Source: Candidatus Marinacidobacterium sp. (lineage in GTDB: Bacteria > Acidobacteriota > Vicinamibacteria > Marinacidobacterales > Marinacidobacteraceae). Taken from it: 64,000 nucleotides of DNA. The stretch lies in contig OZ242011.1 of the NCBI GenBank assembly GCA_965204755.1, positions 2,016,001 through 2,080,000 on the forward strand, in the 5' to 3' direction. Positions within the stretch are counted from its first letter, which is position 1. Every line of letters begins with the position of its first letter. Both the position numbers and the translations under genes were made by a program. Shown here piece after piece: positions 8,223 to 33,379 of this stretch. The notes beneath the pieces are model-generated. The model was given only the letters and a program-made list of their open reading frames with translations. It was not told the DNA's origin and ran no database searches.

Positions 8223-11200
8223 GCGCCGGCCTCCTTGCGGGCTCGCGCCCGGTTTCCGGCGGCGGCGCGCGCCGAGGCCGACGCCGCCCGCCCCGCGGGT
8301 TCGGGCGCCCCGACGGCCGAGGCGTCCGCCGCCGGGAAGCGGATCACGAACCGCGTGCCGCTGTTCAGCCCGCTCTCCACCTCCATCACGCCGCCGTGCT
8401 CCTGCACGATCCCGTAACTGATGGACAGGCCGAGCCCGTTGCCTCCGCTCTTCTTCCGCGTGGAGAAGAACGGGTCGTAGATGCGCCGGATGTCCTCCGG
8501 CGCGATGCCTTCGCCGGTGTCCGCGACTTCCGCGATCACCTGGTCACCGTCGACGCGGGTGGTCAGCGTGAGCCAGCCGCCGGCCGGCATGGCGTCGAAG
8601 GCGTTCACCGAGAGGTTCACGAAGACCTGCTGGAGCCGGTTCCCGTCGCCCCGGATCGGGGGCAGCCGCGCGTCGAGGTCGCGGCGGATGCGGATGCGCG
8701 AGGCCCGCAACTGGTGGTCGAGCAGCGACAGGACTTCGCCGAGCACCCGGTTCAGGTCCACCGGGGCGAACTCGGTCTGCCGGTGGCGGGCGAAGTTGAG
8801 GAGGCCGTTCACGATCCGCGAGGCGCGCTCGGTCTGCTGCTCGATCTTGTTCAGCAGCGGCCGCCGCGGGTCTTCGCCTTCGGTCTGGTCCTGGAGCATC
8901 TGCGTGAAACTGGAGATGCCGGCGAGGGGGGTATTGACTTCGTGCGCGACGCCGGCGGCGAGGACGCCGAGCGAACTCATCTTCTCGCGCAACTGCATCT
9001 CGTTCTCCATGCCGACGCGTTCGGTGATGTCCTCGAAGATGAGCAGGGCGCCGTGGTGCTCGCCGCCGCCGGAGACGAAGGGCGCCGCCTTCACATTCAC
9101 CACGCGCTCGATGCCGTCGGCGGACTTCAGGTTGTGCCGGGAAACGCCGCCGCGGGCGCCGCCGGTGAGCCAGCCGGCGCCGAGGCCGGCGTCGAGCGCG
9201 CGGATCAACTCCGGCGGGAACACCGCCTGGTAGGAGGAATGGGACACCTCGTGGCGGCTGCGGCCGTAGATCCGCTCCATGGAGCGGTTCCAGCGGATCA
9301 CCCGGCCGCCCAGGTCGAGCACCACCACCCCGGCGGCCAGCGACTCGATGGTGTCTTCGCTCTGCTCCCGGAGGGCGACGACTTCCTCGTGTTTCGCCTG
9401 GAGCGAACTGTAGAGCCGGGCGTTCACCAGCGCGGTCGCCGCCTGCGCCGCCAGCGTGCGCAGCAGGTCGAGGTCCTCCGAAGAGAGGTCGTCGCCGTCC
9501 TCCGTCGCGCCGAGCGCGATGACGCCCACCACTTCGCCCCGGGCGTAGCAGGGAAGCGCGTTCCGCACCCAGGCGCCTTCGCTCACCCGCGGCGGGAGGT
9601 CGGCGGTGGAAGCGGGCGAGCCGACGGCGAGGCGCTTCCGCACCGAGGCGGAAGCGACGAACGCCTCCGCCGCCTCGACCTCGTCGTCGTCGAGGCCGCG
9701 CGAAGCGACCGCGCGCAGCGTCGGGTCCGCCGGGGCGCCGGTCGCGGTCAGCAGCGTCACCCGCTCCATGCGGAAAGTGGACGCGATGCGCTCCACGATC
9801 TGGTTGCCCAGCGGGACGAGGTCCAACTGCGAGTTCATCTCGCCGGCGAGGTCGGTGAAGGCGCGGCGGAAGTCGTAGCGCTCCCGGTAGAAGAGCCGGT
9901 CGAGGAACCGCTCCGCGCGCTGGCGGAACGCCGGCACCAGCAGCGCGGCCACGATGGCGGACAGCACCGCGATGATGAGCGAGTGCTCGTCGCCGCCGAG
10001 CCAGGAAGTGCCGAGCAGGAACGCGGCGAGATAGACCGCGGCGATTCCCGCCATCAGGCCGGCGAACAGCAGGCCCCGCTTGAACAGGATCTCCACATCC
10101 ATCAGCCGGTACTTGACGATGGCGTAGGCGAACGAAAGCGGCGCGAGCACCATCGCCGCGAGCGAGAGTTCCATCGCCGGCGTGGGGGAGATGCCGGAGA
10201 AGTACGGCACCGCATACACCAGCGCGAAGGGCAGCATCCCGGCGCCGGTTCCCCAGACGATCCACTTCAACTGCTTGCGGACGGTCACGCTGCGGGCGGC
10301 GCGGAAGGCGTCCACGAAGGCGGCGAAGGCGGCGAAGGAATAGACCGCCCAGAGCACCGGCTCCAACCGGTCGAGCACCGTCTCGCTGACGGTGATGACG
10401 CCCGGCCCCGGACTCAGCGCCGAGAAGTAGAGGAGGCGGGCGAAGAGCGAGAGCCCGAGCAGCGCGAAGGGCGCGGCGTAGGCCCAGCGGAGCAGGCGCG
10501 GTTCGCGCTCCAGGAACCGGCTGCGGCTCGGGAAAGTGAGCGCGAAGTGCAGGAAGACCGCCGGGAAGAACAGGACGCCGACGCGGTCGAGCCAGAAGAA
10601 GAGGTGGTCGAAGAAGTCCAGTTCGCCGGTGAACGAGAACGAGAAGGCCAGCAGCCAGAGGACGCAGAGCCCGTAGAAGTGCGCCGCCGCCGAAACGCCG
10701 CGGCGGAAGGCGTAGACGAAGGTGCCGACGCCGGCGGCGAAGACGCCCACCGCGGCGAGGAACAGGTAGAGCGAGACATTGCCGGCGGGCAGCGGGGCGA
10801 CGGTCAGGGTCAGGCCGCGCCGCTCGCCCTCCCGGACGAGGACATACCGCAGGTGGGACTCGGCGTCCACGCTGCGGAGGATCTCCGGCACCTCGTCGGC
10901 GCGGTTCACCTCGAACACGCCGCCCCCGGCCGGGTGGCTGATCGCCTGGAGCGAGTCGCCGGGGCGGATGCCGGCCAGGTCGCCCGCGCCGCCCGCCTCG
11001 ACGCGGCTGGCGACCACCCGTCCGAGGTCGTCCGCCCAGAGCACGCCGTCGTCCATGACCCCGGCCGCGATCTGCCGGGTGGCGTTCGTCGCCGCCAGCG
11101 CGAAGAGGAGGGAGGTGGCGGCGACCGCGAGGACGGATCGGGCGCCGCCGCCGACAGCCCGGGGGAGAAGCGCCCCGCCCTTCGCTCTTCGACCGGAGGG

Positions 11201-11389
11201 TGGCAGGTCCGCGTTCGGTTTCGGCGCGGGGCGCTCCTCCCCCGGGCGGGCGGCGTGAACCGCTGCGCGATTCCCCCCGCCATCTATCGCGGGGAGGGGG
11301 CCACCCCCTCCCCGCACCCCTCCCCGGTCGTCGCTTCGCGCCGACGGGACCTCCCGGGACTTTCTCCACGGGCTGCTGGGGGAGGGCAT
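8219..11389 (-). CDS. Membrane sensor histidine kinase (PDZ, multi-TM, GAF, PAS, HisKA, HATPase)
   Basis: H-box AGVAHEVNTP, N-box QVFVNLSVNA, DTGEGI and GNGLGL G-boxes, PDZ-like AGIRPGD. The start is uncertain because the N-terminus runs through a MITE. Confidence 0.9.
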   Translation of the reverse strand: MPSPSSPWRKSREVPSARSDDRGGVRGGGGPLPAIDGGGNRAAVHAARPGEERPAPKPNADLPPSGRRAKGGALLPRAVGGGARSVLAVAATSLLFALAATNATRQIAAGVMDDGVLWADDLGRVVASRVEAGGAGDLAGIRPGDSLQAISHPAGGGVFEVNRADEVPEILRSVDAESHLRYVLVREGERRGLTLTVAPLPAGNVSLYLFLAAVGVFAAGVGTFVYAFRRGVSAAAHFYGLCVLWLLAFSFSFTGELDFFDHLFFWLDRVGVLFFPAVFLHFALTFPSRSRFLEREPRLLRWAYAAPFALLGLSLFARLLYFSALSPGPGVITVSETVLDRLEPVLWAVYSFAAFAAFVDAFRAARSVTVRKQLKWIVWGTGAGMLPFALVYAVPYFSGISPTPAMELSLAAMVLAPLSFAYAIVKYRLMDVEILFKRGLLFAGLMAGIAAVYLAAFLLGTSWLGGDEHSLIIAVLSAIVAALLVPAFRQRAERFLDRLFYRERYDFRRAFTDLAGEMNSQLDLVPLGNQIVERIASTFRMERVTLLTATGAPADPTLRAVASRGLDDDEVEAAEAFVASASVRKRLAVGSPASTADLPPRVSEGAWVRNALPCYARGEVVGVIALGATEDGDDLSSEDLDLLRTLAAQAATALVNARLYSSLQAKHEEVVALREQSEDTIESLAAGVVVLDLGGRVIRWNRSMERIYGRSRHEVSHSSYQAVFPPELIRALDAGLGAGWLTGGARGGVSRHNLKSADGIERVVNVKAAPFVSGGGEHHGALLIFEDITERVGMENEMQLREKMSSLGVLAAGVAHEVNTPLAGISSFTQMLQDQTEGEDPRRPLLNKIEQQTERASRIVNGLLNFARHRQTEFAPVDLNRVLGEVLSLLDHQLRASRIRIRRDLDARLPPIRGDGNRLQQVFVNLSVNAFDAMPAGGWLTLTTRVDGDQVIAEVADTGEGIAPEDIRRIYDPFFSTRKKSGGNGLGLSISYGIVQEHGGVMEVESGLNSGTRFVIRFPAADASAVGAPEPAGRAASASARAAAGNRARARKEAGA
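11155..11375. mobile_element. ~220-bp MITE-like element, copy 1
   Basis: Collinear similarity to 20611-20830 (shared core CGCTGCGCGATTCCCCCCGCCATCTATCGCGGGGAGGGG). Imperfect terminal inverted repeats CAGCCCGGGGGAGAAG...CTTTCTCCACGGGCTG. Confidence 0.75.
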
Positions 11390-19300: not shown

Positions 19301-20587
19301 ATGGAGATCCTGGTCGCGCTGCTCGCCGCCGCCGGGCTGGTCCTCACCGGGATGCCGGTCGGCTATGTGCTCATCGCGGCCTCGGTGCTGGCGATCTGGC
19401 TGACCACCGGCACGCCGCTCACCGTCGTCCCGCTCCGGCTCTTCAACGGCACCGACTCCTTCCCGCTGGTCGCGGTGCCGCTGTTCATCCTCGCCGGGGC
19501 GCTCATGAACCGCGCCGGCATCTCGCAGCGGCTCACCGACTTCGCCGCCTCGATCGTCGGCTGGATGCGCGCCGGGCTGGCGATGACCACGACGACTTCC
19601 TCGATGCTGTTCTCGGAGATGTCCGGCTCCGCGGTGGCGGACGCGGCGGCCCTCGGCAGCGTCCTGATCCCGGCGATGAAGGAGCGCGGCTACCCGGCCC
19701 GCTTCGCCGCGGCGGTGCTGTCCTCGTCCGCCACCATCGCCATCCTGATCCCGCCCTCGATCCCGATGATCCTCTACGGGGCGGTCGCCGGCGCCTCCGT
19801 CGCCCGGCTCTTCCTCGCCGGGGTGGTTCCCGGCGTGCTCGCCGGTGTCTTCATCATGGCGGTCAGCCGGGCGCTGGCCCGGCGCGGCGGCTTCGGCGAG
19901 TCGGAGCCCTTCTCCGCCCGCCGCGCCGGCGCCGCGCTCCGCGCCGCCGCCGGGCCGCTGCTCATCCCGGCGGTGATCCTCGGCGGCATCTTCTTCGGCT
20001 GGTTCACGGCTACCGAGGCGGCGGCGGTCGCGGTGCTGCTCGCGCTGCTGCTCGGCGGCGCGGTCTATCGGAACTTCCGCCGGGCGGACCTCGGCGAGGC
20101 GTTCGGCGAGGCCTCCCGGCAGACCGCGGTGGTCATGATCCTGGTCGCCGGCTCCGCCGTCCTCGGCTGGTACCTGGCGAACCAGCAGGCCCCGGAGCGG
20201 CTGGCCGGCTGGGTCCTCTCCCGGGTGGAGGCGCCCTGGGCGGTGGCGCTGGTGCTCGACGGCATCCTGCTGCTCGCCGGGACGATCCTCCACAGCGCCG
20301 CCGCGGTGGTGCTGCTCGTCCCCATCCTCCTCCCGCTGGCCGAGTCGGTCGGGATCGGCCCGGTGCACTTCGGGATGATGGTCACCGTGAGCCTCGCGGT
20401 GGGGCAGCAGACCCCGCCGGTGGCCTCGGTCCTCATCACCACCTGCTCGCTGGCCAAGACCTCGATCTCCGAGGTGATGCGGGTGAATGTCTTCTTCATC
20501 GGCGCCCTGCTCGTCGTGCTGGCGCTGGTTACCTTCTGGCCGCAGTCGGCGCTCTTCCTCCCGGACCTGCTGCTCGGCGCCGGGTGA
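19301..20587 (+). CDS. dctM: TRAP transporter large permease
   Basis: AVPLFILAG, SGSAVAD, LIPPSIPMI, TATEAA, TPPV. Confidence 0.93.
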   Translation: MEILVALLAAAGLVLTGMPVGYVLIAASVLAIWLTTGTPLTVVPLRLFNGTDSFPLVAVPLFILAGALMNRAGISQRLTDFAASIVGWMRAGLAMTTTTSSMLFSEMSGSAVADAAALGSVLIPAMKERGYPARFAAAVLSSSATIAILIPPSIPMILYGAVAGASVARLFLAGVVPGVLAGVFIMAVSRALARRGGFGESEPFSARRAGAALRAAAGPLLIPAVILGGIFFGWFTATEAAAVAVLLALLLGGAVYRNFRRADLGEAFGEASRQTAVVMILVAGSAVLGWYLANQQAPERLAGWVLSRVEAPWAVALVLDGILLLAGTILHSAAAVVLLVPILLPLAESVGIGPVHFGMMVTVSLAVGQQTPPVASVLITTCSLAKTSISEVMRVNVFFIGALLVVLALVTFWPQSALFLPDLLLGAG

Positions 20588-20610
20588 GCGGCGGCGCGGC
20601 GGGCAGGTAT

Positions 20611-20830
20611 CAGCCCGTGGAAAAAGCGCCCCGCCCTCCGCTCCACGACCGGAGGGCGCCGAGTCTCCGTCCGGTTTCGAGGCGGGGCGCTCTTCCCACG
20701 GGCCGGCGGTGTGAATCGCTGCGCGATTCCCCCCGCCATCTATCGCGGGGAGGGGCCGCCCCCTCCCCGCGCCCCTCCCCGGTCGGCGCTTCGCGCCGAC
20801 GAGCGCTCCCCGGACTTTCTTCACGGGCGG
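20611..20830. mobile_element. ~220-bp MITE-like element, copy 2
   Basis: Diverged same-orientation copy of 11155-11375. Ends CAGCCCGTGGAAAAAG...CTTTCTTCACGGGCGG. Confidence 0.75.
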
Positions 20831-28063: not shown

Positions 28064-29416
28064 TCAGGAGGGAGCGGTGCGGAACGCCAGCACCCGCGCC
28101 GCGTCCTCGCCCCACTCCGCGGCCTCCGGGCCCGGCTCCAGGTTCTGCCCGTGCAGGTCGCGGATTTCGCGGTAGAGCAGCAGCCGCAACTCCCGGTCGG
28201 CTTCGAGCGGCGCATGCGGCCGCACCACCAGCGTCCGGCTGCCCTCGTCGTAGGCCACTTCGAGGTCGGGGAACGGGTTCCCGTCCGGCTCGTCCTCGTA
28301 GAGCAGGTCCACCGCCGCGTGGAAACTGTCCGCGATCATCCGGTTGGAGAACTGCACCCGGAACTCGCTGTCCAGCGGAATCTCCCGCTCGCCGTCCAGC
28401 GGCAGCGAGAAGACCACCCGCAGCGGCCCGAACTCGGCCTCCCGCGCTTCGCGTTCGGCGATGCGGATGTCCACCGGTTCGAGCGCCGGGTCGCCCGGCG
28501 CCTCCGCGATCTCGAGGCGCTCGGCGCGCAGGTAGGTCTGGCCGTCCGCGGTCCACGGCCGGCCGTACACGCGCAGCCACTTGCCGGTGTCGCGGCGGCG
28601 TTTCGGGTCGAGCCGGAAGCCCTTGCCGGCGGGGCGCATCCCGGTGACCCAGATGGCGGTCTCGCCGGTCTTGATGACGAAGTCGCGCGGCGTCTTCTTG
28701 GTCTTGATCGAGAGGTCGCCGAACAGGTTGTTCCCCCGGAACTTGCCGACGACTTCGACGCGGCGGCCGATGTACGGCTCGGGGTCGGCGAGCAGCCCGT
28801 CGAGGCCGATCGCGGCGGCGCTCCCCGGGGCGATCTCGATGCGGTCGCCGGCGGCCATCTCTTCCTTCGCCTCGCGCTCGCGGCGGTCGGAGAGGTCTTC
28901 GGTGTCGCCGATCGTGGAGACGGAGACGACGGCGAGGAACCCTTCGGTGCGGCGGTCGAGGGTGTTGCCGGAGATCCACGCCGGATCGAACGGGTAGTTC
29001 CGCAGGATCGGGTGCATCTGGAGGGTGTAGGAGTCGAGCATCCGGGTGGAGAAGAACCAGCCCTCGACTTCGACTTCGCTCGCGCCGAGGAACATCAACT
29101 GGTTCCCGGACATGTAGGAGGCCGCCATCAGGATTTCCCGCGAGAGTTCGTCCGGGTCTTCGAGCACCTGCACCCGGTGGTCGGTCCCGAAGGAGAACCC
29201 GACCTTGCCGCGCACCATCACGGCGGACTCGTGGTACCGGCCGGGTAGGCGGGAGAGGTCGGCGACGGAGACCAGTTCCGGCTGGTCGGGGAAGTAGCCG
29301 AACTGCGCGGCGGCCGGGGTCGCGGCGAGGAGCGTCGCGGCGAGGAGGGTCGCGGCGGCGGCGGGCGCGGCCGGTGTCGGGCGGGGTCCGATGCGGACGC
29401 GAACCGCGGGAGTCAT
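28064..29416 (-). CDS. Secreted protein with OB-fold-like segments and C-terminal Ig-like (Big_5-like) domain
   Basis: Signal peptide ending AAA-Q and C-terminal [30 protein letters not shown] 29416 preferred because ATG 29473 overlaps a likely -10 element. Confidence 0.7.
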
Positions 29417-29471
29417 GGTGCCTCGGGTCTCCGCAGGGCGTGTCCCGTCGGGCGTTTGCGGAGGGTCGGCC

Positions 29472-29480
29472 ATCGTAGCA
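29472..29480 (-). promoter_or_regulatory. Putative extended -10 promoter (TG-C-TACGAT) for the Ig-like protein-thiD-moaE-moaD run
   Basis: Minus strand TGCTACGAT. Its -35 position would overlap the first copy of the repeat array. Confidence 0.35.
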
Positions 29481-29497
29481 CCGGGGGCGCGGGCGGC

Positions 29498-29920
29498 GAA
29501 TTGTGTATAGCTGCCGACGGGCGGCGGCGAATTGTGTATAGCTGACCGGTCGGCGGCGAATTGTGTATAGCTCCGGCCTGGCGGCGCGGAATTGTGTATA
29601 GCTCGGGCTCGGCGGCGCGGAATTGTGTATAGCTGCCGGAACCGCGCTCCGAATTGTGTATAGCTTCGGATCGGCGCTCCGGATCGCGCAGGGACGCCCC
29701 CGGTGCGCCCCGGAGGGCGCGCATCGGCCCGAATTCACCCGGAATCGCGTGTGTACGCCGGTGTAGATGCCCCGGATCGCCTACGGCCGCAAGGGGTTGA
29801 GCGGAATTGTGTATAGCTGCCCGGAATTGTGTATAGCTCGACCGAATTGTGTATAGCTGCCGCGCGAATTGTGTATAGCTGCCGCGAATTGTGTATAGGT
29901 GCCGGGAATTGTGTATAGGT
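29498..29920 (+). repeat. Array of 12 direct repeats GAATTGTGTATAG(C/G)T in two blocks of six
   Basis: Copies start at 29498, 29529, 29558, 29589, 29620, 29651 (periods 31,29,31,31,31) and 29804, 29824, 29844, 29866, 29886, 29906 (periods 20,20,22,20,20). Confidence 0.97.
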
Positions 29921-30013
29921 GGACGACTCCGCTCCCGCGGGGCGCCGGGGGGTCTGCGCGATCCGCCGGCGGCGCGGAGGGCGGCTGGTAGGGTTGCCTC
30001 GCGGCGGGTGAGC

Positions 30014-31135
30014 ATGGCGGATCGGCAACTCCTCCCGGACTCTCCCGAGGAACCCCCCGGACTCGACCGGATCCGCGGGTGGCTTCGCCGGCCGCGCCCC
30101 CGGCTGCGGGCGGTCTGGCTCTGGTTGCGCTGGCTCGGTCGGGGAATCGCCGGCGGCGCGGGCTGGGTCGGCCGGAACGCGCTGCCGGCGGCGCGGGGCG
30201 TGGGCCGGATCGCCGCCGGCGGAGCGAGGGTGGCGCGCGCCGCCGCGCACATCGGCCGGAGCGCCGGGAAGGTCGGCGCGAGTCTGGGCGAGATGGGGAG
30301 CGGGATGAGCGCCGCCGGCGGCCGGTTCGGGCGGATCGGTTCGGCGCTCTCGAACGCCGGCGGGCGCGTGCGCCGGTTCGGCCGGGGACTCCGCCGCACC
30401 GGCCGGGGCGCCGCCGAAGGCCTCGACAGCGTGTCCGTCCTGGGGCGTCACCTCGAATCCGACGCCCCCCTCGGCCCCCCGCCCGCGGAGGAACTCCCGC
30501 CCCCGGCGCCCGAGGAACCGGAGAGCGGGTCGCCGCCCGTCGAACCGCCGCGGACGCCGCGCACCCGGAAGACCGCGAGTTCCGCGACCGCCTCTTCCGC
30601 CCCGCCGCCGACCCCGCCCGAACCGGCGCAACCCGAACCGCCTGCGGAAGCGGATCGGCCCGCGAAGCCGGCCGCCGGCGCCGCCCGGAAGGCCGCCGCG
30701 AAGCGGAAGCGGAAGCGGTCTTCGCCGCCGCCCGCCCCCACGCCGGCGAAGGAGACCGACGCCCCGCCGAAGGCGAGAGACGAACCGCCGAAGGCGAGGG
30801 ACGAACCGCCGAAGAAGAGCGACGCCGCGCCGAAGGCGCCGCCCGAAACCCCGCCCTCCGACGCCGTGCCGGACGCGCTGCCCGAAGCCTTGCGAGCCCG
30901 CATCGCGGCCCTCGGCAAACGGCCCCGCAAGCAGGCGCTCCGGTCCCTCATCCTGGACATCTGCCGCGTCCGCGAGTGGACGACCGCCACCGAACTGGCC
31001 GCCATCCTCGGGGTGGGCCGGCGGTCGCTCTCCACCCGCCACATCGCCCCGATGGCCGACGCCGGCCTCCTCGAACGGCGCTACCCCGACAACCCCACCA
31101 ACCCCGCCCAGGCCTACCGCGCCCCCGCCGCGTGA
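30014..31135 (+). CDS. Protein with Gly/Arg-rich amphipathic N-terminus, Pro-rich linker and C-terminal winged HTH (Fic-like/RecG C-terminal type)
   Basis: ILDICRVREWTTATELAAILG...HIAPMADAGLLERRYPDNPTNPAQAYR, with PPKARDE tandem repeats in the linker. Confidence 0.7.
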   Translation: MADRQLLPDSPEEPPGLDRIRGWLRRPRPRLRAVWLWLRWLGRGIAGGAGWVGRNALPAARGVGRIAAGGARVARAAAHIGRSAGKVGASLGEMGSGMSAAGGRFGRIGSALSNAGGRVRRFGRGLRRTGRGAAEGLDSVSVLGRHLESDAPLGPPPAEELPPPAPEEPESGSPPVEPPRTPRTRKTASSATASSAPPPTPPEPAQPEPPAEADRPAKPAAGAARKAAAKRKRKRSSPPPAPTPAKETDAPPKARDEPPKARDEPPKKSDAAPKAPPETPPSDAVPDALPEALRARIAALGKRPRKQALRSLILDICRVREWTTATELAAILGVGRRSLSTRHIAPMADAGLLERRYPDNPTNPAQAYRAPAA

Positions 31136-31728
31136 ACCCCCCTCCCGGCCCCGTCCGTCCCCGCCCCGCGTCCGCCGCGCGAGCCCTGCCGCCCCGGCTC
31201 ACCAAGTGGCAGGTCGCCGTCGCCGCCCTCTACCGCCTGCGCGGCGCCGTCGTCCGCCGAGACAGCGAGGACATCGCGCTCGAATGTTTCGAGTTGGCCC
31301 CCCGCCGGTTCGGCTGGCGATCCCATCCCCAGTTGGCGCCGGCCCGCGCCGCCCTCCGCGCCGCGCGCCGCTCCGCCCTCATCTCCGGCGACCACGCCGG
31401 CTGGCTGCTGACCCCCGCCGGCGTTTCCTGGTGCGAAGCCCACTTGCCGGAAGCGAAGCCGCGGCGCCGGCTGCGCGGCTGGTCCGCGCTGGAACGGCGC
31501 GAAGCCGAAGCGTTGCGCCGCCTGCTGCGCCAGCCCCTCCATACCTGCTGGAAGTCCGGGCAGCGCGCGCCCACGCTGCCGGAAGTGGCCCACACCCTCG
31601 GTTACACCGCCGACACCCCGGTCGCCGCCGTGCTACGCCGCCTGGACGACCTGTCCGCCCTCGCCCGATTCGCCGACCTCTCCGAAGTCCGGCGCTACCT
31701 GGACTGGCTCCGAAGCGGCGCCGCCTGA
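31132..31728 (+). CDS. Hypothetical protein, probable winged-helix fold
   Basis: GTG overlaps the upstream TGA. The pattern SEDIALECFELAPRRFGWRSHP...WLLTPAG suggests a wHTH with wing. Confidence 0.6.
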   Translation: MNPPPGPVRPRPASAARALPPRLTKWQVAVAALYRLRGAVVRRDSEDIALECFELAPRRFGWRSHPQLAPARAALRAARRSALISGDHAGWLLTPAGVSWCEAHLPEAKPRRRLRGWSALERREAEALRRLLRQPLHTCWKSGQRAPTLPEVAHTLGYTADTPVAAVLRRLDDLSALARFADLSEVRRYLDWLRSGAA

Positions 31729-31750: not shown

Positions 31751-33085
31751 TCAGGTTCGGACCCACCGGTACACGCACTTGCGGATCTCCCGTCGGCCGA
31801 ACCGCCCCATCTGCTGGCTGGCGTTTCCCTTGCCGCGCGGCAGGACGCGGATGCTTTCGCAGGCGAAGCCGACCGTTTCGGCGAAGTCGGAGAGGATCAG
31901 GTCCACCGGCGCTTCTTCGCCGTGGTACTGGACATTGTCGTTGACCATCGCGACGACGCCGCCCGACCGGACGACGCGGGACAGTTCGCAGATGACGACC
32001 GCCATCTCGAGGAAGTACCCCTCGATGAGTCGAATCACCTGGGGGTTGCCGAGTTCGCCGCGATGGTCGCGCAGGATGTCGGTGACCTCCCGAACGCCGC
32101 CCTGTTCCCGGAACATGCGAAGGGCGCTCCGGACCAGCGCCGGATCGCCGTAACTGTCCAACAGCCGGCGCTCCTTGGAGCGGTTCTCGACCGTGGCGGA
32201 CAGCATGTCCTGCCGAAGATCGGAGAAGCGTTCGCGGTCGTAACCCAGCCAGGCGAGTTCGAGCGCGTAGGTGCGCGTGTAGTCGTACCGGTTGGCGTAG
32301 GGCGGGGAAGTGATGACCAGGTCCACCGAATCCCCCGGAAGGTCCTGGAGTCGCTCGAGACTCGAACCGAGGACCAGCGTCGGGGCGCCCCCGCCGTAGA
32401 GGGTCCGGAGCGCGGGGATGTCCGCATCCATCTGCCGGAGCCGCTCGGCGAGCGCTTCGGCGAAGGGCAGGATGGTTCCCTTGTCGACGCGGGATTTCAG
32501 CGGGCGGCCGGAGCGGTAATCCCACCGGAGGTACTGCCCGTCCTTGCGCGTGTAACTCACCGACTCCAGAACGCTCATGCACGCGAAGTCGAGCAGGCGG
32601 GCGAGTTCGCGGTTGCGCATCGCCGCGAGGAACTGCCGCGCGCGGGCCAGGGCCGCTTCCGTCTCTTCCGGGAATGCCCGCTGCGTGATCGGGACATGGG
32701 GAAAGGAATGACGGGAGGGCGCCGGGCCGCCGGCTTCCACCTGCTTCACGAGACGGGCGCCGGCGCGCCGGAAAGCGCTGCGGTCGAGACCCTTCGCGGC
32801 GCGCACGATGGCTTGGGCGGCCCGCGCGCCCACGGGCATGATTTCGATACCGGTGGCGCGAAGCCCCCGTCCGGCGGCGATGAGCGGCGCCGTGCCGAGT
32901 CCGGCGAAGGGATCCAGCACGGATTCCGGTTGGACTTCGGCCAACAGGCTTTCGACGAGGTCCGCGGAGAAGCCCTCCTTGTATTTCATCCACCGAAAGC
33001 CGGGGAGTCGCCGGTTCCCCTGGAAGGACACGGCCCGCCGGGTCAGGGTCGGATCCACGAAGATCCGGTCCTCGAATCTCGCCAT
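31751..33085 (-). CDS. Orphan amino (N4-C/N6-A) DNA methyltransferase
   Basis: Motif I VLDPFAGLGT precedes motif IV VITSPPY, plus WMKYKEGFS. No cognate restriction gene recognised. Start placed at ATG 33085. Confidence 0.88.
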   Translation of the reverse strand: MARFEDRIFVDPTLTRRAVSFQGNRRLPGFRWMKYKEGFSADLVESLLAEVQPESVLDPFAGLGTAPLIAAGRGLRATGIEIMPVGARAAQAIVRAAKGLDRSAFRRAGARLVKQVEAGGPAPSRHSFPHVPITQRAFPEETEAALARARQFLAAMRNRELARLLDFACMSVLESVSYTRKDGQYLRWDYRSGRPLKSRVDKGTILPFAEALAERLRQMDADIPALRTLYGGGAPTLVLGSSLERLQDLPGDSVDLVITSPPYANRYDYTRTYALELAWLGYDRERFSDLRQDMLSATVENRSKERRLLDSYGDPALVRSALRMFREQGGVREVTDILRDHRGELGNPQVIRLIEGYFLEMAVVICELSRVVRSGGVVAMVNDNVQYHGEEAPVDLILSDFAETVGFACESIRVLPRGKGNASQQMGRFGRREIRKCVYRWVRT

Positions 33086-33379
33086 CAACGCGCGCCGCTC
33101 CCGCGTGGCGCCGCCGTTCGGGGAGGTAACGGCCTGTCGGTAGGGGCGCAGCCGCAGCGCCGGTTCGGCGGGCGGCGCCGGAGCGCGGGGAGCGCCCGGC
33201 AGGCGCGGCGGGAGGGTGACGCCGAGCCCGGCCGCCGGCGGAATGCCCGGAAGACCGGCGGTCGGGTCGGGGAAGATCGCGTCGTGGCGCACTCGGCAGG
33301 AGGCCTCCGTCGGGGAGGCGCTGATGATGAGCAGCCCGAGCGACACATTTCGCCACCCCCCGCGGGGCGAAGCGCGCCG

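Follow-up and report, generated by a model that had tools for sequence, protein, structure and literature searches.

What reads an array of twelve short words that lie on one strand between two divergent genes, and what purpose could it serve on a bacterial chromosome? The array sits in a window of 64,000 nucleotides (the whole stretch of DNA analysed here) that corresponds to positions 2,016,001-2,080,000 of the source genome, G000, a single 3,975,858-bp contig of 71.7% GC from Candidatus Marinacidobacterium sp. A preliminary description of the window regarded the array as a protein-loading platform, either for DnaA at an origin or titrating cluster, or for the winged-helix proteins encoded next to it. 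We consider it probable that the array is a high-occupancy docking platform for one of these proteins, p30014, encoded 93 bp downstream. The binding itself, its cooperativity, the autoregulation and the cellular role of the arrays (as anchor, organiser or regulator) are what we infer from the comparisons below.

Anatomy of the array and its copies on the chromosome

Twelve plus-strand copies of GAATTGTGTATAG(C/G)T occupy 29498-29920 of the window, ten of them exact and two, the last in the right half, with C>G at position 14, so that they read GGT in place of GCT (Table 1). The chance expectation for the 15-mer is 0.08 matches (100 shuffles; maximum 1). Start-to-start distances are 31, 29, 31, 31 and 31 bp in the left half and 20, 20, 22, 20 and 20 bp in the right half, and the halves stand 153 bp apart from start to start, leaving a centre of 138 bp. 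Copy number, orientation and spacing were thus reproduced as first described, and so was the position between divergent genes, of which the left one starts at 29416 (-) and encodes a secreted protein with a Big_5 domain and the right one starts at 30014 (+). The linkers are GC-rich and non-conserved, again as first described (0.87 GC; 26 of 43 five-nt linkers distinct genome-wide; mean pairwise identity 0.43), and the only GC dips at the array are the repeat cores themselves. Since the repeat periods are not multiples of three, the repeats are non-coding. A CRISPR array was considered and rejected: the repeats are 15 bp with linkers of 5-16 bp, as against ~23-50 bp with spacers of similar length, and the flanks hold no cas genes.

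The array is not an assembly artefact, because contigs from independent public metagenome runs show the identical structure. One contig of 2589 bp (X5) covers 28900-30569 with the entire array included, another (X3) covers 29523-30795, and the contigs of a third source (X1) tile the array region with no differences. The recorded sources that carry the region are sponge and marine metagenomes, and the module built on this word, which we call motif 1, is also present in several metagenome strains.

The preliminary description had placed copy 1 over the -35 element of a leftward promoter. This proposal did not hold, as a sigma-70 consensus scan of 29350-30080 returned 0 promoter-like sites. An autoregulated promoter of p30014 is presumed to lie in the leader; autoregulation is a conjecture, because no promoter was detected between array and gene. 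The negative promoter scan also bears on a possible function at the RNA level, in which the arrays would be transcribed and the word would sequester an RNA-binding protein or act as a small RNA. All copies within an array lie on one strand, as expected for an RNA motif. We nevertheless regard this as highly improbable, given that no Rfam match, promoter or convincing terminator was found, that phasing by two and three helical turns is a property of duplex DNA, and that the partner protein has a winged helix of the DNA type.

Table 1 Coordinates of the array, its neighbouring gene and related features. Rows marked G000 use genome coordinates; all others use window coordinates.
Feature	Position	Strand	Remarks
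Left half-array	29498..29665	+	6 exact 15-mers, 29-31 bp spacing, ~3 helical turns
Centre	29666..29803	+	138 bp, ~70% GC, 3 co-oriented CGGATCG words
Right half-array	29804..29920	+	6 copies, 20-22 bp spacing, ~2 helical turns
Leader, last repeat to start codon of cognate gene	29921..30013	+	93 bp
p30014 gene	30014..31135	+	373 aa, begins 93 bp downstream of array
Paralogue 1 (G000)	1047266-1048330		~105 bp downstream of bipartite AAAGACACAGGCT array
Five AAAGACACAGGCT arrays (G000)	245539-245968, 587948-588415 (-), 1046738-1047173, 2291687-2292220, 3356798-3357248		
Paralogue 2 (G000)	2589968-2591251	-	81 bp from 2-kb tandem CGGATCGA(C/G)CCCC array, array downstream
Large tandem arrays (G000)	2587853-2589887 and 2780725-2782404; also 340348-341475, 755746-755990		
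GAGGTTGCCCCGCTTTCGTGGACGGGT element copies (G000)	358261-358336, 755674-755748, 1207858-1207924, 2895829-2895857, 2970685-2970765, 245988-246065; plus 422207, 1902654		
76-bp element copies (G000)	358306-358371, 585869-585944, 1575798-1575879, 2970640-2970716, 3119661-3119737		
Dispersed ~120-bp repeat (G000)	2036568-2036726 and 2027154-2027270		

The locus is not unique. The genome-wide count of the word that the preliminary description had proposed was carried out on G000, where the 13-nt core occurs exactly 100 times. Allowing up to three mismatches to the 15-mer gives 107 matches, of which 104 lie within nine clusters of 9-14 copies; the remaining three are isolated, with three mismatches each. 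All nine clusters are bipartite and share a common anatomy, namely a half-array, a centre and a second half-array on the same strand, with centres of 138-220 bp (153-235 bp start to start). Spacings within the arrays (n=86) are 19-22 bp in 65 cases, 29-32 bp in 16 and other values in 5. Across the 104 copies, core positions 1-13 are conserved at 98-100%, position 14 at 73% and position 15 at 91%. The nine centres are mutually alignable yet strongly diverged, that of the window being weakly homologous to those of the other eight arrays, and because the centres are homologous, whole units must have been copied. A constant word amid drifted linkers and centres is, at the level of sequence, the signature of selection, or of word-specific conversion, acting on a recognition site. 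Neutral minisatellites, generated by slippage and functionless, would account for relatives in genus g2, whose nearly identical whole 32-bp units resemble young tandem amplifications. We judge such an origin very unlikely, since in G000 the cores are at least 98% identical while linkers and centres diverge, the spacing is quantised to helical turns and the arrays are linked to a specific protein family.

The nine arrays occupy both strands, are unrelated to the weak, irregular GC skew, and are spaced round the chromosome marginally more evenly than random (6.8% of simulations were as regular). The genes that flank the arrays are a heterogeneous mixture of housekeeping and island-type genes, the latter including SNF2 helicases, DUF4143 ATPases, Uma2, a PDC-M02B candidate defence protein and a Type II methyltransferase. 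One of the nine motif-1 arrays, that of the window, adjoins the p30014 gene.

Several other features recur in this genome. A conserved element of 44-80 bp, GAGGTTGCCCCGCTTTCGTGGACGGGT..., has eight copies in G000. Six of these lie within 300 bp of an array, invariably facing outwards from it; the element could be a promoter directed outwards or could belong to the copied unit. Another element, of 76 bp, begins with TGTC and contains two direct GACACC..ACTTTTACGCA half-repeats, with a likeness to a solo transposon end; three of its five G000 copies adjoin motif-1 arrays, and it has four matches in the closest congener, G001. A dispersed intergenic repeat of ~120 bp, with more than 50 genomic copies, is found at window positions 20568-20726 and 11154-11270. 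The window also encodes a Type II DNA methyltransferase (31751-33346, minus strand; PADLOC MTase_II, E 6e-111), convergent with the gene at 31132-31728.

The p30014 family and its words

The protein encoded beside the array has a conserved N-terminal motif, PPGLDRIR..W. An AlphaFold2 model computed from a 32-row alignment predicts a short helix (residues 17-25) followed by two long helices (29-100 and 104-150) that form a coiled-coil hairpin (pLDDT ~70-80), a disordered linker rich in Pro, Ala and Lys (151-285), and a confident winged helix at the C-terminus (290-370, pLDDT ~95). In Foldseek the winged helix aligns best with the C-terminal domain of the Fic protein 4rgl (E 0.01) and next with the ArsR and MarR families. 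Among the antiparallel coiled-coil hairpins matched by the N-terminal part is the chemoreceptor signalling domain 2ch7 (E 7e-7); composition probably drives this match. p30014 has no Pfam match above cut-off and belongs to no NCBIfam or PADLOC family, and none of these three collections reveals a transposase, recombinase or nuclease domain in it. Against the Pfam model Fic-like_C (PF21247) it scores 20.7 bits, with a cut-off of 27, and three distant full-length homologues have a precomputed PF21247 match. Sequence searches returned 8 close homologues at 84-91% identity and 9 more distant ones at 31-54% identity over 23-99% of the query, all of them unnamed; further matches were confined to proteins with the C-terminal domain in common. 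When 1.84 billion representatives were searched with a profile, 77 matches reached E <= 1e-30 and 1031 reached E <= 1e-10, the majority of the latter spanning the winged helix only.

G000 contains two paralogues of p30014, each beside arrays of another word (Table 1). The first is accompanied by AAAGACACAGGCT, or motif 2, whose five arrays each have, immediately ahead of the right half-array, an AT-rich segment of ~40 bp with a AATCAAGGAGTTA pattern that resembles an IHF site. Its orthologue in G001 (same genus, assembled as one contig) is 69.5% identical over the aligned 223 residues, and the word there is almost unchanged. The arrays of the second consist of units of ~120 bp in which CGGATCGA(C/G)CCCC appears every ~30-40 bp. 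The centres of the motif-1 and motif-2 arrays are rich in CGGATCG, a short form of this last word: 16 copies occur in 2683 bp, ~7 times the genome-wide density of 0.84 per kb, and 15 of the 16 are co-oriented. The enrichment hints at combinatorial occupancy by two paralogues. An ORF resembling a C5-cytosine methyltransferase follows the paralogue at 1047266-1048330 (from ~1048650; motifs judged by eye only).

Of 27 other genomes in the same taxonomic family, whole-genome searches located the p30014 family in 19, usually in several copies per genome; in two sister families it was found in none of the 8 and none of the 19 genomes searched. We oriented 30 homologue loci from 20 genomes by gene strand and scanned them for arrays. 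By a lax criterion (a 10-mer with at least four copies outside the gene) 27 of the 30 loci pass, with the array upstream in 20, downstream only in 5 and on both sides in 2, and three have no array; 197 of 1000 random 4-kb windows of G000 pass the same criterion. A strict criterion, which asks for five or more exact copies in succession spaced by 12-45 bp, retains 19 of the 30 loci, one of which has its array in coding sequence, and the background is 35 of 1000 random 4-kb G000 windows, many of which represent the same array families. No neighbour gene is conserved across the 30 loci. Relatives therefore do keep an array beside the winged-helix gene, a point that the preliminary description had raised; the pairing recurs with different words.

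These words include GCGACATGTTC, TATCGACCGGA, GACGC-containing words, GCTACTAGTAGC, TATCGCACCCAGTTC and GAATCACATAGGC, about 16 different ones being found in the family, and the arrays of relatives are spaced at 31-33 or 20-21 bp. In a tree of the winged helix, the six word groups with at least two rows that resolve are each monophyletic, and the predicted recognition helix (x-x-L-x-x-R-H) varies at residues that are common within word groups and different between them. Such congruence of clade and word is consistent with cognate recognition without being proof of it, since relatedness alone would yield much of the pattern. Gene-array linkage and congruence could both arise partly from joint inheritance of neighbours, and related genomes are not independent samples. 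In all four genomes checked, one gene goes with several arrays at dispersed positions (nine motif-1 and five motif-2 arrays in G000; five of the motif-2 word in G001; 3-4 in G008; five in G014).

The proposal that the array serves the adjacent winged-helix proteins is accordingly supported for one of them and unsupported for the other: recurrent gene-array pairing favours the product of 30014-31135, whereas an orthologue of the product of 31132-31728 occurs in G001 without any array. Docking by p30014 is our preferred explanation for several reasons. The core is at least 98% conserved while positions 14-15, linkers and centres have drifted; 81 of 86 within-array spacings fall at 19-22 or 29-32 bp; the C-terminus of p30014 is a confidently predicted winged helix; the pairing of gene and array recurs in the family with its own word for each clade; paralogues in the same genome also adjoin arrays; the layout of one gene with several arrays is found in every genome checked; and a p30014 orthologue and the 13-mer are jointly missing from the congener. 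A different binder, for example a host nucleoid protein or regulator, with the adjacency resulting from shared insertion sites, would fit the single gene-adjacent array among nine, the richness of the genome in repeat families, and the second co-oriented word of the centres, CGGATCG, which is similar to the word of the arrays beside another paralogue. We think this improbable, as adjacency recurs in 27 of 30 loci from 20 genomes with clade-specific words, and as arrays and gene are absent together from G001.

Docking by p30014 could operate as follows: (i) each asymmetric word of 13-15 bp would be read by one winged-helix domain, and the head-to-tail order with a spacing of two or three turns would align every bound domain along the same face of the double helix. 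(ii) The flexible linkers of ~135 residues would free the N-terminal hairpins to bundle with one another or to attach to another cell structure. Each locus would thereby present 9-14 coiled-coil hairpins, which may bridge half-arrays or distant arrays. (iii) The gene-adjacent array would probably also autoregulate p30014, and the other eight would act as trans sites that mark or anchor chromosomal loci. A wider extrapolation is that the family possesses an addressable system of chromosome landmarks, in which fast-diversifying paralogues each read their own word and mark 3-9 dispersed arrays that spread as copyable units and are bundled or tethered, thus forming motor-less, multi-locus 'centromere or insulator' arrays that have no described counterpart. 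We offer this as a speculative idea that we consider unlikely.

Gain of the module and the DnaA reading

At the window locus in G001 the two outer genes are neighbours at a distance of ~100 bp, and the DNA that separates them contains neither the array nor p30014. The syntenic sites for two other arrays, A8 and A9, are also empty, so the arrays are absent at 3 of 3 sites checked. The 13-mer was found in none of 40 relatives searched (G001 and 39 others), and the best p30014 match in G001 has 41% identity and is not an orthologue. Since the congener lacks the gene, the 13-mer and, at all three sites, the arrays, the motif-1 module (the gene and its nine arrays) is specific to the G000 lineage. 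On balance, we read gene and arrays as a module that this lineage gained recently and that belongs to a family-wide system with a separate word for each paralogue. A 14-nt exact match, GACTCCGCTCCCGC, joins the DNA right of the array (window 29925-29938) to the 5' end of the G001 orthologue of the gene at 31132-31728 (L176 3728-3741; E 0.005 in a small search), and may be a remnant of the sequence that preceded the insertion.

A further possibility is a selfish origin, with the arrays as a non-autonomous mobile or satellite element whose array-centre-array unit copies itself to new intergenic sites, the word as a means for the element to propagate itself, and p30014 as the element's accessory DNA-binding protein instead of a host factor. 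The arrays are missing at all three syntenic sites of the congener, their nine homologous centres indicate the copying of whole units, and many of their neighbours are island-type genes; the outward-facing 44-bp element lies within 300 bp of six arrays (six of its eight genomic copies), and the transposon-end-like 76-bp element lies beside three. We hold this origin to be unlikely, however. No transposase, recombinase or nuclease domain was found in p30014, nor any conserved neighbour gene; no terminal inverted repeats bound the unit; no target duplication is readable at the single empty site compared (A8 against G001, too diverged for boundaries); and the centres have diverged far beyond the cores, which argues for a long residence under selection on the word. 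A selfish origin would be compatible with binding of the arrays by p30014.

Beyond the taxonomic family, the exact 15-mer gave single chance matches only in genome_contigs and viral_contigs, in unrelated and mostly AT-rich organisms. A tandem-pattern scan of metagenome_contigs returned three contigs (L222-L224), all from one unrelated low-GC organism. They carry two 13-mer copies 22 bp apart within an oriC-like region crowded with TGTGGATAA boxes, and are the sole tandem occurrence of the 13-mer found in the metagenome collection.

This occurrence touches on the remaining proposal, that replication starts at the array or that the array titrates DnaA in the manner of datA, with the CTATACACA core acting as a DnaA box. 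The likeness noted at the outset is borne out: on the minus strand the core is one base from TTWTNCACA, every array copy having C at box position 1, and the relaxed E. coli DnaA-box consensus tolerates the deviating base. Strict TTWTNCACA boxes are very rare in G000 (6 in 3.98 Mb, none clustered, none in the arrays and none near dnaA), so that, with a DnaA of canonical specificity, most of its binding would be expected at the 104 near-boxes. The two 13-mer copies, 22 bp apart, in the apparent oriC with TGTGGATAA boxes of the unrelated low-GC organism point the same way.

Against this, dnaA lies at 1.824 Mb (1823684) and the array at 2.045 Mb, 221 kb apart. The preliminary description had itself seen no AT-rich unwinding element or rep gene, and both observations stand, with a centre of ~0.70 GC and no Rep family among the flanking products in Pfam, NCBIfam or PADLOC. 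The cumulative GC skew of G000 is weak and asymmetric (minimum ~2.5 Mb, maximum ~3.9 Mb); its broad minimum at ~2.1-2.9 Mb shows no switch at the array, where the description had suggested looking for one, and the nine arrays, in both orientations, are unrelated to it. The word occurs in 0 of 40 relatives, the congener included, the arrays co-occur with p30014 and not with DnaA, and the sister arrays of G000 and its relatives use words unlike any DnaA box. Given that the family uses ~16 words, it is unsurprising that one of them should come close to a degenerate 9-mer by chance (by an estimate of roughly 10%). Because the word co-occurs with p30014, is absent from the congener and has unrelated sister words, DnaA is unlikely to be the ligand, and we regard an origin or titrating cluster at this array as extremely unlikely. 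The replication origin of G000 is not obvious from sequence; a search for oriC near dnaA with strict boxes and CCACA-type 9-mers found no cluster.

Comparison with known systems

Phased direct-repeat arrays bound by the product of a neighbouring gene are already known from plasmid centromeres and iterons. Plasmid iterons, bound by Rep, and the E. coli datA and DARS loci have phased direct repeats of ~15-22 bp at a spacing of about two turns, and in datA and DARS the box clusters are accompanied by an IHF site. The arrays described here differ from them in that no rep gene, unwinding element or link to dnaA was found, and in being chromosomal, multi-copy and absent from the congener. RacA-ram, Noc-NBS and MatP-matS share with them the principle of one DNA-binding protein and a specific word at few to tens of dispersed sites, with a second domain (a coiled coil or an amphipathic helix) that bridges or tethers the sites. 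However, the sites of RacA, Noc and MatP are single, mostly palindromic boxes bound by dimers, whereas here 9-14 words are arranged head to tail; and those systems are broadly conserved with one word per organism, whereas here paralogue-word pairs diversify fast.

In the ParR-parC system of plasmid R1, two phased blocks of direct repeats flank a central segment, and the product of the adjacent gene binds cooperatively on one face and autoregulates. ParR is a ribbon-helix-helix protein, the parC repeats are 11 bp, the motor is ParM and the locus is single and plasmid-borne. The array resembles parC in its two phased blocks round a centre beside the gene of the putative binder, and differs in the fold of that binder, in repeat length, and in the motor and the single plasmid locus of R1.

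Among split centromeres of the tubC/parC kind, which we regard as the closest analogues of the arrays, tubC also matches in the class of fold. TubR is a winged-helix centromere-binding protein whose site lies upstream of its own gene as direct repeats split into blocks, and the TubR-tubC complex represses the promoter and builds a higher-order nucleoprotein structure, or segrosome (PMC6009700). The likeness therefore extends to a winged helix and to split direct-repeat blocks upstream of the gene of the known or putative binder; as in a partition centromere, the two six-copy blocks end 93 bp before the start codon, and arrays are upstream in 20 of 30 loci. However, TubR is small and has neither coiled-coil hairpin nor long linker, both of which are predicted for p30014, and what p30014 has in common with TubR is the winged-helix class of fold, its top structural matches being the Fic C-terminal domain, ArsR and MarR. 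The gene for the motor TubZ adjoins that of TubR, whereas no NTPase gene adjoins p30014 or its homologues; no motor gene of the ParM, TubZ or ParA type was found in the window flanks, and none is conserved at the 30 loci. Finally, tubC is a single plasmid or prophage site, as against nine chromosomal arrays and several paralogue-word pairs per genome here.

We know of no chromosomal version in which many arrays are dispersed, each genome has several paralogue-word pairs, words and locations turn over rapidly and a motor gene is lacking. Our search of the open-access literature found no description of such a gene-array system, and the pairing of gene and array with differing words across a family seems to be undescribed. 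If the arrays are anchors or organisers, they would offer a natural orthogonal set of protein-DNA address pairs and would help in studying how the nucleoid is organised in sponge- and marine-associated bacteria that have not been cultivated. Should they prove selfish, they would represent a new kind of satellite element, one that brings its own binding protein with it.
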